From positions 1,135,750-1,199,749 of the forward strand of contig OZ242164.1 of NCBI GenBank assembly GCA_965205335.1: a stretch of 64,000 nucleotides of DNA, written 5' to 3'. The stretch comes from Candidatus Woesearchaeota archaeon (GTDB taxonomy: Archaea; Nanobdellota; Nanobdellia; Woesearchaeales; UBA583). This document shows positions 18,053 through 24,482 of the stretch, piece after piece. Each line of letters starts with the position of its first letter. Position 1 is the stretch's first letter. The notes beneath the pieces are model-generated. The model searched no databases and was not told the DNA's origin. It saw only the letters and a program-made list of their open reading frames with translations. The position numbers were made by a program, and so were the translations under genes.

Positions 18053-18913
18053 ATGGATAAAATAATTCTCAAACAGCAGAAAAATGAAATTACTGAATAT
18101 CACATCTATTTAAGACTATCTGAACTAGCAAAAGATGAACATAATGTCAGGATTTTAAAGAAGATTGCTAAGCAGGAATTAAAACATTATGAATTCTGGA
18201 AATCAATAACAAGAAAAGAAATTGCACCAGACAAATTCAGAATTTCATTATATGTCTTTCTTGCAAGATTCGTTGATTTATCATTTGCTCTAAGGTATAT
18301 GGAAAAAGGGGAAGAGAGGGCAAAAAAATTCTATGAAGTAATGAAACATAAATATCCCCAAGTTAAAAAAATCCAAAAAGATGAAGAAGAACATGAGAAC
18401 AAACTAATAGGAATTCTTAATGATGAAAGATTAACTTACTCAAGTTCAATTGTCCTCGGATTAAACGATGCATTAGTTGAATTAACAGGAACATTAGCAG
18501 GTTTAACATTTGCTTTTGGGAACTCTTTAATAGTTGGAATTACCGGACTTATAATGGGAGTTGCGGCGTCACTTTCAATGGCGGCTTCAGAGTATTTATC
18601 AAACGAAGAGGAAGAAACCAAAGACAAAAAATCATCTATAAAATCAGCCTTATATACTTGGATGGCATATATAATATCTGTAGTTCTATTAGTTTCTCCA
18701 TATTTCATATTTGATAAAATAATGCATGCCTTTGCAGTAATGCTTACAATGACAATATTAATAATATTTAGTTATACATTCTACATATCAGTTGCCAAAG
18801 GATTAAGCTTTAAAAAGAAATTCTCTCAAATGGCATTGATTTCACTAAGCGTTGCATTAATTAGTTTCATAATAGGAAGACTTGTAAGCATTTATTTTGG
18901 AATAGAAGTATAA
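18053..18913 (+). CDS. rubrerythrin-domain VIT1/CCC1 family transporter
   Basis: E..H diiron motifs then IVLGLNDALVE.TG.LAG, A.SLSMAASEYL. Confidence 0.9.
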   Translation: MDKIILKQQKNEITEYHIYLRLSELAKDEHNVRILKKIAKQELKHYEFWKSITRKEIAPDKFRISLYVFLARFVDLSFALRYMEKGEERAKKFYEVMKHKYPQVKKIQKDEEEHENKLIGILNDERLTYSSSIVLGLNDALVELTGTLAGLTFAFGNSLIVGITGLIMGVAASLSMAASEYLSNEEEETKDKKSSIKSALYTWMAYIISVVLLVSPYFIFDKIMHAFAVMLTMTILIIFSYTFYISVAKGLSFKKKFSQMALISLSVALISFIIGRLVSIYFGIEV

Positions 18914-19024
18914 AATTTACAAGAGAACCTTTAACATACTTATTAATTCTTTATATTTATACGACTCTTATACAACTCAAGTGTAATATAAAACTATATA
19001 AACTAAAAGTTCGTATAGCACATT

Positions 19025-19849
19025 ATGGATATTGAATCACTTTCCCAAATATTAAAAAAAATTGAAACTGAGATTAAACTTAGGGGATTTTCAAAACAGA
19101 CATCTAAAATGTATGTCTTATACAATCGTCAGTTTTTAGAGCGTACAAAACTTAATCCTAAAAATGTCTGTGATGATGACATTAAATTATTTCTTGCAGA
19201 AAAGTTAGAAGAAGAACTTAGCACCAAATCAATTGCTTTAATTAAAGCCGCTCTCATTTTTTATTATAATGAGATTTTAGGAAATAACTTTGACATAAAA
19301 ACTCCAAAAATTAAAAAATCAACACCAGTTGTTATGACAAAAGAAGAGATTGCAAGATTATTTTCTGTAATTAAAAACAAAAAACACCTTATCATAATGA
19401 AACTATATTATGGCTCAGGCTTTCGTTTATCTGAGGCAATTAGCCTAAAAAAGAAAGATATAGATTTTAATGAGAATGTAATATGGATTCGTGATGGTAA
19501 AGGAGGAAAAGACAGAATGAGCATAATCTCCCAATCTATGTCAAAACAGTTAGAGGAATTCACAGAGCATATTGGAAAAGATGATTTTGTCTTTACAAAT
19601 TCAAGAGGAGATCCCATATCGCAAAGACAGGTCCAGAAAATAATTGAGAAAGCTAAAATAGAAGCAAACATTCAGAAAGACGTTCATATTCACACATTAA
19701 GGCATTCTTTTGCAACTCATTTATTAGAAGCAGGAACGGACATAAGAAAAATTCAGGAACTCTTAGGACATAGCGATTTATCGACAACACAGATTTATAC
19801 AAGAGTAACAAATGAAGAACTAAAAAAAGTCAAAAGTCCGTTAGATTAA
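19025..19849 (+). CDS. xerA: XerA-type tyrosine recombinase
   Basis: LRGFS..T..Y N-domain; G.R.SE, GKGGKDR, HTLRHSFATHLLE.G.DIR.IQELLGH..L.TTQIYT. Confidence 0.9.
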   Translation: MDIESLSQILKKIETEIKLRGFSKQTSKMYVLYNRQFLERTKLNPKNVCDDDIKLFLAEKLEEELSTKSIALIKAALIFYYNEILGNNFDIKTPKIKKSTPVVMTKEEIARLFSVIKNKKHLIIMKLYYGSGFRLSEAISLKKKDIDFNENVIWIRDGKGGKDRMSIISQSMSKQLEEFTEHIGKDDFVFTNSRGDPISQRQVQKIIEKAKIEANIQKDVHIHTLRHSFATHLLEAGTDIRKIQELLGHSDLSTTQIYTRVTNEELKKVKSPLD

Positions 19850-20059
19850 TTCTTGCAGAAGATTTTATTTTCCCTAAATATTATTAAGGAACTTTCTTAA
19901 AACTTTTAATTCCATAGAATTGAGCATAGAATATAATCCTATTATTTAAATAAAAAGACTCAATTAAAAACATTGTAAAGATTAAATATGTGACATTTAT
20001 ACTACTTCATTTTTAGGATATGAAGATGTATCTCTATGTCCATTCTGCATTCTGAGAAC

Positions 20060-20608
20060 CTATGTACTTTCCAAGGCACAACTATCAGGTGGTGGGATTA
20101 TAATATCTCTACTATATTTTCCTCTACATCTCTCTATTTCTTTCAACACAGCACGTGGATCATCATGTGTGGAAAGAAGATATTTTTTGGGTGTTAAAAC
20201 TGTTAGTTCAAGACTATTACATTCTTTAGGAATGGTATTATGATGGTTTGTGAGACATACCAAATTTATCTCTGACATAGCATTTTTATTTTTATTTTTA
20301 AGATGTGTGAATATCCTCCTTGCATTTTCTATTTCATTTAAAATAGATGATTTTTCATTAGTAGCTATCACTTTAATATAGCGTTTAATCGTTAATTCTT
20401 CAAAATATAAATCTAAAATAGCAGGAAATCCATTATCAATGTTTAATTTAAGGTCTTTGCAAGAACTACTAACCGTATCTTGTGTTATATTTTTTTGATG
20501 AGAATAAAGATAGTCTTGTATATGGTTATGTATAGAATAAGGATAATCTGACCTGAGAATATAACCTCGTTCACAAATCTCATAAAGATTTCTATCTCTT
20601 CCTAACAT
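20060..20608 (-). CDS. hypothetical protein, paralog A of 20864-21409
   Basis: 182-aa ORF; shares Y..CER.Y...DY, DLY, ATN, KECN, IP.P...AL with paralog B. Confidence 0.75.
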   Translation of the reverse strand: MLGRDRNLYEICERGYILRSDYPYSIHNHIQDYLYSHQKNITQDTVSSSCKDLKLNIDNGFPAILDLYFEELTIKRYIKVIATNEKSSILNEIENARRIFTHLKNKNKNAMSEINLVCLTNHHNTIPKECNSLELTVLTPKKYLLSTHDDPRAVLKEIERCRGKYSRDIIIPPPDSCALEST

Positions 20609-20713
20609 AACTATTAAGTAATAACATTTTATTTATAAAATTATGTATTGATTAATCTTAAATTATCTGCTAAAAATTCCAAAATTACTTTTCATTTTCC
20701 TAACTTAGCATAT

Positions 20714-20788
20714 GATTTATCTACAACGCAGATTTACACAAGGGTAACAAACGAAGAATTAAAGAAAGTCAAAAGTCCATTAGATTAA
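20714..20788 (+). repeat. second copy of the xerA 3' end (direct repeat of 19775-19849)
   Basis: 67/75 nt identical; all 8 differences synonymous; encodes DLSTTQIYTRVTNEELKKVKSPLD*. Confidence 0.95.
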
Positions 20789-20863
20789 TTCTTACAAGAA
20801 TCTAAGGTTATAACCTTTCTATTGTTTTCAGTACTTTTTTTATCTCTAGGTCCATTATTTTTA

Positions 20864-21409
20864 TCACTTAAGAGCCCCTTCAGGTATAGGAATTCCAATA
20901 AACTTTAGGTTATTATTATTATTATTATTTTTATCATTATTTCTATACACTTTATCTGCTGCTTCTTGGTCACCCCTTGAAAGAATATTGTAATTAAAAC
21001 TTATAATTCGTACATCAATTTTATTACATTCTTTAGAGAAGGGTTCAATTAGATGTACCAAATGTCCATTTATTTTATTATTATTTTTTCCATCTGCAAT
21101 TCTCTTATATCCCTTAAATATATTTTTCATTCCACATATGTGAGCTAGGCGATCATTAGTGGCTACAATTTCAGCGTAGTGTATTTTCCCTCCTATTTTT
21201 CCAATATATAGATCGAAAAAGATATTTGGTTCCCCAGATTTTTCTAACGTGGCATTTGTACTCTTAAATGTAATATCCACTCCATTAATTAGCATTTTAT
21301 GTGGATTATGGTATAAATGCTGTCTTATAATTTCTTGTAATTTATGATTATAATCAGGCTTCGTTACATAATAACGTTCACAATTATCATAAGTTTCTTC
21401 CTCTATCAT
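20864..21409 (-). CDS. hypothetical protein, paralog B of 20060-20608
   Basis: 181-aa ORF; shared motifs and similar upstream promoter region. Confidence 0.75.
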   Translation of the reverse strand: MIEEETYDNCERYYVTKPDYNHKLQEIIRQHLYHNPHKMLINGVDITFKSTNATLEKSGEPNIFFDLYIGKIGGKIHYAEIVATNDRLAHICGMKNIFKGYKRIADGKNNNKINGHLVHLIEPFSKECNKIDVRIISFNYNILSRGDQEAADKVYRNNDKNNNNNNNLKFIGIPIPEGALK

Positions 21410-21454
21410 GACTATTATGTATCTATCTTAGATTTATAAATTTATTGTATTGAT

Positions 21455-21582
21455 GGCTCTGTCCGAAAATTCAAGAGAACTTAAAATGTTATATAAATAA
21501 AGCAATTTTTGACAAATATTTTTTTTCTTTGATTGAATATAGTTAGCATAAATTTTGGAAAAAACAATTTTCGGACAGAGCC
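21455..21582. mobile_element. 128-bp MITE
   Basis: Perfect 17-bp TIR GGCTCTGTCCGAAAATT/AATTTTCGGACAGAGCC; 8-bp flanking duplication GTATTGAT. Confidence 0.9.
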
Positions 21583-21591
21583 GTATTGATT

Positions 21592-21678
21592 GACTTTGTT
21601 CAAAAAGTCTATATTTTGTGTTATAAATTTTTAAAATATACTATATATTGATATTTTAACTACTTTTTGAACAAAGCT
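21592..21678. mobile_element. 87-bp MITE (same family as 47223-47309)
   Basis: TIR GACTTTGTTCAAAAAGT/ACTTTTTGAACAAAGCT; 9-bp flanks GTATTGATT/ATATTGATT; interior aligns without gaps to the reverse complement of 47223-47309. Confidence 0.88.
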
Positions 21679-21721: not shown

Positions 21722-22369
21722 TTATCTTGTGTAGTAGAAACCAGCGCAGAATATATGCTCATTAGATCTCTCACAATATGTTGATTTAAACGCTTCTTCA
21801 TTAGTTCTTGGAACTGTGAATATATATTCTATCCATTTTCCTTCTTCTGTAGTATTAGAAATTTCCTCTCCGTAACGATTACCTAATCTATCTACTAAAT
21901 GAGATATCTGATTATTCTCCAAATCTTTTCTGAAGGGATGAGCAACATTATTTCCTCCTTTAATCACAGATACATATATATCATCTTCTACATATACTCC
22001 ATCGCTAACATCTTTTAATGTTTTCTGAGGATCTTGGTTGAAATCTTCAATTGACCTTTTTACCAAAGCAACAGACTGCTTTGCCTCATATGATTTATAT
22101 CCTTCCCCATCTGCAATTCTCTTTGTTCTCTTATCTAAGTCCGAAGGTTCATTCATGTCATATTTCTTTATATGTTTATTGTTACAATATTCTTCCCTAT
22201 TCCATTTTCCTCTTTTGTCAGATATGCATTTCTTATCACCATACCCTCCTCCGTAACATTTCCCTTTCTTGTCATCATAATTATCGTGAACTGAACTAAA
22301 AACAAAAATCCCAAACAATAACACATGTATGACCACCAATACTACTATAATTTCTTTAAAGTGTTTCAT
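21722..22369 (-). CDS. membrane-anchored single Cache-domain protein
   Basis: N-terminal TM; D.YV.V....AHP....L...D..G..G...EGKW..Y.F..P....K.TYC...CAG.Y. Confidence 0.8.
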   Translation of the reverse strand: MKHFKEIIVVLVVIHVLLFGIFVFSSVHDNYDDKKGKCYGGGYGDKKCISDKRGKWNREEYCNNKHIKKYDMNEPSDLDKRTKRIADGEGYKSYEAKQSVALVKRSIEDFNQDPQKTLKDVSDGVYVEDDIYVSVIKGGNNVAHPFRKDLENNQISHLVDRLGNRYGEEISNTTEEGKWIEYIFTVPRTNEEAFKSTYCERSNEHIFCAGFYYTR

Positions 22370-22523: not shown

Positions 22524-23900
22524 TTGAAAAATATTATGAACTTGAAAAACTTTGGTGTGGAAACAAATGAAGAAAAAAACAAACCAAAAGAAATAATTGA
22601 CTCTAAACTGAACCTTAACACCAAAGAAATTGCCCAAAAATTTAAACTCCAGAACACTGAAACATATCTCCCTTGGTTTCTTAAATATGAACTAAATGAT
22701 TACAAAGACCTAATAATAACATCTCAAATTCAGAAAATAATAGACTTCATTGAAACCTTTCAAACCAAAAACAAAAAAAAAGCAATCCTTCTATATGGTC
22801 CTGCCGGCTCTGGAAAAACAACAACACTAACTCTTTTTGGAAACCATTACAACTACGAAGTACTTGAACTGAACGCATCAGATAACAGAAATAAAAAATC
22901 AATTGAAGAAACCGTTGGAATTGCAGTAAAACAAAAATCCTTATTTGGAAAAAACAAACTAATACTGATAGATGAAGCAGACGGAGTTTCAGGCAGAGAT
23001 GACAGAGGAGGAATAAGTGCACTTGCAAAAATAATAAAAGAATCAAACTACCCAATAGCATTCACAGCAAACGATGGAGAATCCGAAAAAATAAAAGTCC
23101 TAAAAAAATTATGCATTTACATTGACTTTGAAAATCATTCACAAGAACTCCTTCTAAAAATCGGAATGAAAATCCTAAAAGCCGAAAATATAAAATACAA
23201 AAAGGAAGAACTAAAAGAATTCATCTTAAAAAGAAATGAGACAGACATTCGTGGTTTCATAAACGACTTACAGGCATTATCATACAATAACGAACTGAAT
23301 GTACAGGAAGACTTAGAACTAAGAGATTACAAAAAAAAAATAGAAACCCTTCTAAACAAAATCTATTTCTCATACCCAGAAGACTCATTTAAAAGCGGAT
23401 ATAACACAGATGTAAACTTAGACGAACTATTTCTTTATCTTGAAGAGAACACTCCAGATGTATACTCAAAAACTGCTTTAATCACTGCTCTAAACGAAAT
23501 ATCAAAAGCAGACATTTTCAGAGGCAGAATAAGAAAATGGCAGCATTGGAGATTTTTAGTATACGTAAACTTTTACCTAACATACGCAGTATCCAATGCA
23601 AAAGATGTTCCCAAAAAAATAGACAAATACAAAAGAAACAGAAGAATACTTTCCAAATGGATTTATGCAAACAAAGTAAACAGCCTCTCACAAAGAACCA
23701 AACTTCAAAAAAAAAACAAAGACCCGGAAAAACTAATAGAAAAACTCTCAAAACTATACAAACGCTCAGCAAAAAAAACAAGAGCGGAAGACTTATTTTA
23801 CTTTGCAAAAATATATCAAAACAATGAACAATTCCAAAAAGAAATGGACAAAACACTTCAAATAAACGATTCCGAAAAAAAAACATTACTTGAATTATGA
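22524..23900 (+). CDS. rfcL: replication factor C large subunit
   Basis: W..KY, LYGPAGSGKT, ELNASD.R, LIDEADG..G..DRGG, EEN.P, S.ADIF.GRI..WQ.WR. Confidence 0.93.
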   Translation: MKNIMNLKNFGVETNEEKNKPKEIIDSKLNLNTKEIAQKFKLQNTETYLPWFLKYELNDYKDLIITSQIQKIIDFIETFQTKNKKKAILLYGPAGSGKTTTLTLFGNHYNYEVLELNASDNRNKKSIEETVGIAVKQKSLFGKNKLILIDEADGVSGRDDRGGISALAKIIKESNYPIAFTANDGESEKIKVLKKLCIYIDFENHSQELLLKIGMKILKAENIKYKKEELKEFILKRNETDIRGFINDLQALSYNNELNVQEDLELRDYKKKIETLLNKIYFSYPEDSFKSGYNTDVNLDELFLYLEENTPDVYSKTALITALNEISKADIFRGRIRKWQHWRFLVYVNFYLTYAVSNAKDVPKKIDKYKRNRRILSKWIYANKVNSLSQRTKLQKKNKDPEKLIEKLSKLYKRSAKKTRAEDLFYFAKIYQNNEQFQKEMDKTLQINDSEKKTLLEL

Positions 23901-23945: not shown

Positions 23946-24482
23946 TTAATCTGCTTGATAATACCCAGCGCAGAGTATATGTTCCTCAACTTTCCTACAG
24001 TATGTTGATTTAGGCGCCTGTTTATCAGTCTCGGGAATAGTGAAAACATAATTTATCCATTTACCATCTTCTGTTGTAGTAACAATATCTTTCCCAAAAT
24101 AATAATCATTAACATCTTTCAGCTCTGTCACTTTAGTATTTTCTAAATCCTTCCTATATGGATGTCCTACAATATATTCCCCCTTAACTGCAAAAACATA
24201 CAAATCATTATAAATATAAGTATCACCCCTAATACCACTTAAAGTGCTCTCCTTGTCAATATTATAATCTCTAATTGCACTATCAATTAACTTCATTGCC
24301 AGCTTTACTCTCACAGAATAATCATCATAACTATCTCTCATATCATCTCCATAATAATCCATCTTTCTATAAGAATTCTTATCATGAGCAGAAATTACCA
24401 CAAAAGCCCCTAAAAGCAACACCACTAAAACTAACAACACTACAACTGTTTCTTTAAAATGTTTCATCTTGATTTTTCCCAA
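23946..24482 (-). CDS. membrane-anchored single Cache-domain protein (paralog of 21722-22369)
   Basis: MKHFKE.VV.L.V..LL.G start, HP.RKDLEN, TTE.GKWI.Y.FT.P, KSTYC, HI.CAG.Y. Confidence 0.8.
   Translation of the reverse strand: MGKIKMKHFKETVVVLLVLVVLLLGAFVVISAHDKNSYRKMDYYGDDMRDSYDDYSVRVKLAMKLIDSAIRDYNIDKESTLSGIRGDTYIYNDLYVFAVKGEYIVGHPYRKDLENTKVTELKDVNDYYFGKDIVTTTEDGKWINYVFTIPETDKQAPKSTYCRKVEEHILCAGYYQAD

Follow-up and report, generated by a model that had tools for sequence, protein, structure and literature searches.

Results

Organization of the xerA locus

The stretch of DNA analyzed here, called the window throughout, comprises 64,000 nucleotides from a Candidatus Woesearchaeota archaeon (assembly GCA_965205335.1, contig OZ242164.1, positions 1,135,750 to 1,199,749), the source genome being denoted G000. 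Our subject is its tyrosine recombinase gene, xerA, the 3' end of which occurs a second time beyond a convergent orphan gene. The features of this locus are as follows.

19025..19849, plus strand: xerA, an intact tyrosine recombinase open reading frame (ORF) of 274 aa
19775..19857, plus strand: tail copy 1 (tail 1), comprising the 24 terminal codons of xerA, its stop codon and 8 nt more, with the catalytic Tyr and the C-terminal helices
19858..20713, no strand: putative inserted unit between the tails, 856 nt with one gene, similarity being lost sharply on either side of the repeat
20060..20608, minus strand: cassette gene 1, 182 aa, an orphan convergent with xerA
20609..20713, no strand: region 5' of gene 1; an A+T-rich TATA-like box (TTTATAAA, ~20632-20639) stands 24-31 nt ahead of the start codon, and ~70 nt more lead to tail 2
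20714..20796, plus strand: tail copy 2 (tail 2), with the same peptide and the same stop codon, the putative displaced xerA 3' end
20864..21409, minus strand: cassette-family gene 2, 181 aa, convergent, following tail 2 and with no third tail after it

The product of xerA was assigned to Pfam Phage_integrase (E-value 4.7e-47) together with a SAM-like N-terminal domain, and a search of the PDB returned as top match the XerA of P. abyssi (4a8e, E-value 2.7e-47), with which it aligned end to end. In this alignment Y258 pairs with Y261, named as the catalytic residue of P. abyssi XerA in the work on that enzyme (PMC3646895). IntI4 (2a3v) was among the PDB matches too, with no single stretch passing alone. 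Across the whole genome, a single contig of 1,199,749 bp, xerA is the sole match to PF00589. The recombinase fold, the catalytic Tyr, the C-terminal helix, the single copy and the conservation in relatives that mark an archaeal XerA were thus all found.

The two xerA tails differ at silent sites only

An earlier note on this DNA had claimed that a 75-bp xerA tail recurs 939 bp downstream with eight silent differences, and the claim was confirmed by repeat finding, by pattern and by translation. The tails were returned as a two-copy direct repeat of 83 nt (89% identical, spacing 939), a degenerate 35-nt tail pattern matched exactly two sites as against none in 100 shuffles, and either copy translated to DLSTTQIYTRVTNEELKKVKSPLD*. 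Across the 75 coding nucleotides there are eight differences (seven transitions and one transversion), all eight of them silent, the codon pairs of tail 1 and tail 2 being TCG/TCT, ACA/ACG, TAT/TAC, AGA/AGG, AAT/AAC, CTA/TTA, AAA/AAG and CCG/CCA. By base these are G/T, A/G, T/C, A/G, T/C, C/T, A/G and G/A, running in both directions; a ninth difference lies past the stop codon (TTGCA/TTACA). When seven transitions and one transversion were placed at random in 75 nt by simulation, the peptide was kept in 1 of 10,000 trials (P = 1e-4). Were one tail constrained and the other free, an estimated ~60% of changed codons would be expected to be non-silent, and eight silent changes out of eight would then have a chance of ~7e-4, which makes a free pseudogene fragment a poor account of tail 2. 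The further claim that both tails evolved in functional xerA alleles is, with differences confined to silent sites at this P value, well supported.

Outside the 83 nt, similarity was not significant, 849 of 2000 shuffles scoring as well upstream and 1674 of 2000 downstream, and the longest exact run common to both tails is 14 nt. No third tail was found beyond gene 2 (218/500 and 112/500 shuffles score as well). At the unit borders no inverted repeat, hairpin or palindrome was seen among the pairs in the repeat listing, the borders not having been folded separately. Tail 2 sits in a 46-codon open frame (20648-20788), of which TTG is the only start codon. Silent sites of the xerA tail vary freely among relatives, with no nucleotide conservation beyond coding needs, which argues against a fixed nucleotide site in the repeat; nor was a dif-like 11-6-11 palindrome conserved among relatives seen in the tail, the genome's own dif site not having been located.

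When G000 was scanned by peptide for further gene tails in duplicate, the result was mostly paralogues, one insertion sequence copy and one mixed case, with none purely silent like xerA. In the mixed case, which lies outside the window (700825-700883 and 701643-701701), 59 nt from the end of a 527-aa gene recur 818 nt downstream at 85% identity, with silent and non-silent changes side by side.

The inserted unit and its gene family

Both ends of the 856-nt unit are unique, blastn against the genome returning only themselves, and its G+C content (0.25-0.31) does not deviate from that of the genome (0.31), as expected for a close donor. Each tail is followed by a convergent member of one gene family, just as had been proposed: the proteins of genes 1 and 2 (182 and 181 aa) are 24% identical (E-value 1e-10), and the first coding bases and upstream regions of the two genes are homologous (0/500 shuffles as good). 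The TATA-like box upstream of gene 1 may act as a promoter.

The family itself is rare. Cassette gene 1 belongs to no Pfam or PHROG family, and a PADLOC search gave one weak match to the CARF_PDDEXK (CARF-PD-(D/E)xK nuclease) model (E-value 1.4e-4) for one of five members. The AlphaFold2 model of the cassette protein was poor (pLDDT 54.8), and its comparison with the PDB by Foldseek gave no match at an E-value ≤ 0.001; a protein atlas was no more informative. A word-based search with the cassette proteins recovered the window pair alone. Searching 1.84 billion representatives by profile added three further family proteins and one cluster member (P0003, P0004, P0005 and P0006), all on ENA metagenome contigs and two of them (P0004 and P0005) representing one relative split in two. 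Searches of the genus's 19 remaining genomes (one marginal match, E-value 0.005), of 400 genomes of the class and of genome contigs and viral contigs did not recover the family, and 400 other genomes of the order held none at a meaningful score (one match, E-value 7e-4 over 42 residues). Rfam returned nothing relevant for the window region or for the inserts of relatives described below.

The end of xerA in related genomes

Of 61 genomes searched, with G000 among them, 53 had XerA; every one of the 19 other genus members did, with identities of 59-75%. In eight of these 19 relatives an AAA+ gene of the replication factor C (RFC) type follows xerA at a distance of 0.36-1.4 kb, and the genes in the interval were different in 8/8; the spot after xerA is thus variable in the genus. 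To look for second tails, each xerA locus was searched with its own last nine residues within 1.5 kb, one locus (L033) being dropped for want of an ORF. A second xerA tail behind a small insert was found in 3 of the 19 genus relatives (G012, G016 and G017), and none was found in nine loci of other genera. In G012 the pair differs by 11 nt in nine codons over 63 nt, all silent and including a TCG/AGT serine pair, and in G017 by 4 nt in three codons over 33 nt, again all silent, while the two tails of G016 are nearly identical, with two silent codon changes and one change at the junction. The XerA tree groups G012 with G017 (support 100/100) and G016 with G018 (100/99), the last being without a second tail; at least two of the events in relatives are therefore separate from each other and from that of the window. 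With the window included, the end of xerA has been hit repeatedly, in 4 of 20 genus genomes. The inserts of the relatives are other ones, however, and the cassette family was not found in the genus relatives.

Two pieces of xerA-like sequence were seen in other genera. In the last 420 nt of locus L126 (G027, contig C59, minus strand), a second 'IKSPLD' mini-tail, silently recoded (TCT/AGT, CTT/TTG), comes 35 nt after a xerA-like end, and locus L127 (G021, contig C92, 3300-3548) holds a lone 82-residue C-terminal xerA fragment that is ~75% identical to the genome's own xerA on another contig.

A small structured element in relatives

In G012 and G016 the insert between the xerA stop codon and the second tail is an element of ~56 nt, here called element E.

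L098 1501-1562, minus strand: element E at xerA of G012, ~56-nt structured element
L101 1501-1562: element E at xerA of G016, ~56-nt structured element

Element E consists of a 5' hairpin, its outer and inner stems covarying and its CTTGA and GAAA loops fixed, and of another hairpin after it; Rfam has no match to it. A covariance model built from six copies gave 25 matches in 10 of 20 genus genomes (E-value ≤ 0.05) and 20 matches in 17 of 151 genomes of the order (E-value ≤ 0.01); in G000 no match was found. The positions of G012 and G016 in the XerA tree suggest that their insertions at xerA were probably independent. Further loci (L099, L100, L102, L103, L108, L109, L111, L112, L115, L120-L122 and L060-L079) place the element at tRNA gene ends and beside housekeeping genes, namely those for EF-1alpha, an RNA polymerase subunit, eIF2-gamma, RNase HII, MgtE, tRNA synthetases and TFIIB. 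Among 132 ORFs scanned near copies of E, no integrase other than xerA, no reverse transcriptase and no transposase was found. The E inserts of the relatives differ in kind from the unit of the window: what has inserted there is small and structured, and it targets tRNAs and genes other than xerA as well.

Flanks were compared automatically at 17 of 45 loci, the remainder being inspected by eye. At 16 of the 17, 26-65 nt of upstream sequence is duplicated directly after the element, and in three loci the duplicates are identical (L120, 30/30; L122, 26/26; L070, 39/39). At tRNA genes the duplications range from 11 to ~85 nt and include partial duplicates of tRNA ends (11-20 nt). The loci inspected by eye include tandem units of flank plus E, and at least seven order-level loci are without visible duplication. 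Where the duplicated flank is coding, the tail pairs vary in character: purely silent pairs (silent/non-silent) were counted automatically in L098 (9/0) and L121 (3/0) and by eye in L115 (3/0) and L055 (5/0), mostly or wholly non-silent ones occur in L103 (0/3), L111 (0/6) and L108 (0/1), and L102 is mixed (3/1). The frame of the second tail is open back into E in all eight coding cases, five of which share one frame, a share that is not significant.

Element E resembles MITEs (miniature inverted-repeat transposable elements) and other small non-autonomous elements in being short and non-coding, in having several copies per genome and in its target duplications. Unlike MITEs, it has no terminal inverted repeats, reaches only 1-6 copies per genome, makes long duplications of variable length (11 to ~85 nt) and shows RNA-like stem covariation. 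A single literature search for a described element of this type returned nothing fitting, which cannot prove E to be unpublished.

Metagenome contigs across the locus

A 13,371-nt Logan contig from run X1 covers 18900-21482 of the window with no differences, and a second Logan contig, from run X2, covers 19852-21482 and so crosses tail 2; the two runs may be the genome's own sample, so that this support is not fully independent. As exact runs shared by the tails do not exceed 14 nt, a k-mer assembly cannot fold the tails together, and with a contig spanning both tails without difference, a mis-join of the tails is unlikely. A joint between 19775 and 20714, corresponding to an excised or deleted form, was not present in the contigs, which drop rare variants, so that this is no evidence of absence. 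Pieces of xerA from co-occurring relatives in the same runs carry 11 differences in 401 nt and 27 in 265 nt (3-10% divergent), in the range of the nine differences in 83 nt between the tails; donors of a suitable distance therefore exist. A scan of metagenome contigs with XerA gave at most 46% identity.

Low-depth variant contigs in runs X1-X3 match only 20604-20720, the region upstream of gene 1 as far as the start of tail 2, with divergence to the left and right of it. One of them, 477 nt in length, has 15 differences and one gap over these 117 nt, and an X2 contig joins patches at 19881/20194 and 20279/20604. These contigs may represent a sister-strain version of the locus, or another organism.

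Downstream neighborhood

The ORFs of the locus comprise VIT1, the integrase xerA, two orphans, a Cache-domain protein and an AAA protein. Beyond gene 2 the following features were recorded.

21455..21582, no strand: MITE, 128 nt, ending in perfect terminal inverted repeats of 17 bp, a bystander located shortly upstream of gene 2
21722..22369, minus strand: Cache-domain protein, 215 aa, with a paralogue at 23946-24482
22524..23900, plus strand: AAA+ protein of the RFC large-subunit type, the next conserved gene after xerA in 8/19 genus relatives

The MITE is bounded by an apparent 8-nt target duplication (GTATTGAT); the genome holds at least 41 matches to it, of which five are identical. In the metagenome contigs it reaches a depth of 551 as against ~5 for the flanks (~100-fold), and contigs break there. 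A second short repeat (~21594-21678, ~85 nt) has an internal inverted repeat and three further genome copies at 84-87% identity; together the two repeats show ordinary transposon traffic at the locus. The Cache paralogues (both on the minus strand) are 37% identical, flank the RFC-type gene and share a 162-nt repeat (71%) at their 3' ends. Neither was found at the xerA locus of the genus relatives.

Discussion

The tails are most simply accounted for by an insertion at the 3' end of xerA through which the gene remained whole. The explanation that we favor, with confidence somewhat above even, is that two once-functional xerA ends were joined by the recombinational insertion of a one-gene unit, tail 2 being the displaced former xerA 3' end. 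Donor DNA from a related strain or a mobile replicon would have carried its own last 24 xerA codons beside a convergent orphan gene, and would have recombined with the chromosome at the xerA end to give, in order, a complete xerA end, 856 nt with one gene and its promoter, the other tail and the resident paralogous gene. Each tail would have evolved inside a working xerA allele in a separate lineage, and would for that reason differ from the other only at silent sites. We infer a single recombination event, either Campbell-type and homologous (a circle, with ~83 nt of homology) or site-specific. The earlier proposal that an incoming unit restored xerA and pushed the old tail downstream is supported as regards an insertion that left xerA whole; either tail may be the one that came in. 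Joining by XerA itself, with its own gene as attachment site, is not supported, and no conserved nucleotide site was seen. As it now stands the arrangement looks like a fixed relic, without sign of ongoing cassette traffic.

Several observations weigh against this explanation. By ORFs and Pfam, the 856-nt unit lacks mobility genes such as an integrase or excisionase. Neither an empty site nor a different occupant turned up among relatives, the nearest of which is 75% identical in XerA, and the other members of the cassette family, known as proteins, may or may not lie beside xerA. Both family members stand in tandem here with homologous 5' regions, which also fits a local origin. Finally, the similar tail pairs of relatives are target duplications of a small element, and several of them are purely silent, which a model of donor alleles does not predict on its own.

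Other explanations account for parts of these data. The earlier note had read the locus as an integron-like array, and in an active system of this kind XerA would capture circles of xerA tail, gene and promoter at the end of its own gene, stack them and push older units downstream. It would be suited by a rare family represented twice in tandem behind xerA, the promoter regions being homologous, by xerA as the genome's sole tyrosine recombinase, by its end as insertion site in 4/20 genus genomes and by the E insertions of G012 and G016, probably independent ones to judge by their separate clades in the XerA tree. Yet tails enclose a single unit only, its borders showed no hairpin or palindrome, the silent sites of the tail are unconserved among relatives, the cassette family is in 0/19 genus, 0/400 order (at a meaningful score) and 0/400 class genomes, and the cassettes have promoter-like boxes of their own and point towards xerA, unlike integron cassettes; we regard such a system as unlikely, and stacking was not borne out. 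An old tandem duplication of a tail-plus-gene unit followed by ordinary decay would leave tandem paralogues with homologous 5' regions, as observed. But with the flanking genes at 24% identity, a simple duplication of that age would not leave tails that are 89% identical and differ only at silent sites (P ~1e-4), a free pseudogene piece of that age being unrecognizable, and this origin has next to no probability in our estimate. Scarcely more probable is an assembly artefact, in which two strain haplotypes of the region downstream of xerA were joined in tandem: related strains do co-occur in the sample and the genome comes from a metagenome-like sample, but one Logan contig crosses both tails and both genes with no differences, another crosses tail 2, the tails have no exact word above 14 nt in common and the genome is one 1.2-Mb contig.

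The behavior of element E bears on two further explanations. A transposition-like insertion may have duplicated 83 nt of its target in place, tail 2 then being kept coding through homologous recombination with other strains' uninterrupted alleles, by which it was overwritten from the downstream side. This is what the flanks of E would suggest, with 26-65-nt duplicates at 16/17 loci, some of them identical, with duplicates of 11 to ~85 nt at tRNA genes and with xerA tails that are nearly identical in G016 and differ by 11 nt in nine codons, all silent, in G012. G000 is nevertheless without E, neither end of the 856-nt unit looks like E or like a repeat of the genome, a freely drifting tail 2 would give eight silent changes out of eight at ~7e-4 and the overwriting step is conjecture, so that we give this route a small chance. 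Selection might instead act on tail 2 itself, were it expressed as a mini-protein in which the catalytic Tyr is followed by the C-terminal helix that docks on XerA, for instance as a modulator of XerA. The 46-codon frame lies behind an A+T-rich, roughly symmetric TATA-like box, and the C-terminal helix of P. abyssi XerA acts as a switch, its deletion abolishing recombination according to the work on that enzyme (PMC3646895). In relatives, moreover, the frame of the second tail is open into E in 8/8 cases, and pairs that share one E frame are mostly purely silent (9/0, 2/0, 3/0, 3/0). Against this, the only start of the frame (TTG) lies upstream of where a box-driven transcript would begin, five of eight in one of three frames is not significant (binomial estimate ~0.09) and L103 (0/3) is a counter-example; a mini-protein seems quite improbable. 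For the genus as a whole, the last xerA codons might be a preferred landing site at which displaced tails stay under coding selection, either through self-capture by XerA (a minimal integron-like system) or through the ~56-nt element, and perhaps the one-gene unit too, inserting with long target duplications at the ends of housekeeping genes and tRNAs, the duplicated ends being translated or swapped in. We consider this wider scheme doubtful.

Among described systems, the closest parallel to the insertion that we favor is that of e14 and phage 21 at icd, where an insert likewise sits in the 3' end of a protein gene, the gene is kept whole by a supplied end and the displaced end lies downstream. 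In the annotation of E. coli K-12, e14 begins 165 nt ahead of the stop codon of icd and has a 165-nt pseudogene, icdC, at its opposite end, the e14-borne end being the one attached to icd per the RefSeq annotation. The last 165 nt of icd differ from icdC at 12 positions in 11 codons, nine of them silent, and similarity stops at the borders. The xerA tails are alike in their mainly silent differences (8/8 codons, as against 9/11), in their sharp borders and in homology that ends at or near the stop codon. The analogy with islands that replace the 3' end of a gene, drawn in the earlier note, fits by the icd/icdC benchmark; the note's other analogy, with SSV1, was set aside. Unlike the unit of the window, with 0.86 kb, one orphan gene and no recombinase, e14 is 15 kb in length and has its own integrase and excisionase, and the target gene here is, unlike icd, the cell's only tyrosine recombinase. 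Where gene-end-replacing elements have their own integrase between the repeats, one 182-aa ORF without a Pfam family is found here. The case thus differs from known insertions of this class in being very small, without its own integrase and inside the recombinase gene itself.

Integrons share with the xerA locus small one-gene units beside a tyrosine recombinase gene, with two family members in a row here. They differ in that attC hairpins were not seen here, that the cassettes of the window have their own promoter-like boxes and are convergent on the recombinase gene, and that the repeat is recombinase coding sequence, not attI, with one repeat-bounded unit only; the recombinase is XerA-like by its best PDB match (4a8e). 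Suicidal integrases of the SSV1 type, with attP inside the integrase gene, are alike in having the recombination site within a tyrosine recombinase ORF. As described in PMC7253208, their gene is divided into an N and a C part lying on either side of the provirus, and what is duplicated is a segment of a tRNA. In the window, by contrast, xerA is intact (274 aa) and only its own tail is duplicated; partition of the SSV type was rejected, the gene being complete and its product aligned end to end with 4a8e. Integrative mobile elements exploiting Xer (IMEX) at dif offer a parallel in the possible use of the host Xer by an element without its own recombinase. Their target is the 28-bp dif, and dif-like sites lie on both sides of them, whereas no such site conserved among relatives was seen at the repeat of the window, in a genome whose dif was not located. 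In Thermococcales, according to PMC2958812, dif is not adjacent to xerA. A diversity-generating retroelement was rejected, as the differences between the tails are not confined to adenine and run in both directions, and no reverse transcriptase was found among the neighboring ORFs.

Where a gene end is silently recoded, DNA from another lineage has left a clean footprint of its entry, the target gene being unbroken. That an insert of 0.86 kb without a recombinase should lie at xerA raises the question of how tiny gene units move in genomes nearly without mobility genes. Together with the four hits at xerA among 20 genus genomes, the occurrence of element E at the ends of genes for EF-1alpha, RNA polymerase, eIF2-gamma, RNase HII and tRNAs points to an insertion mechanism with long target duplications that we could not match to a described one. 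If confirmed, these findings would provide a new handle on gene flow in these reduced archaea.

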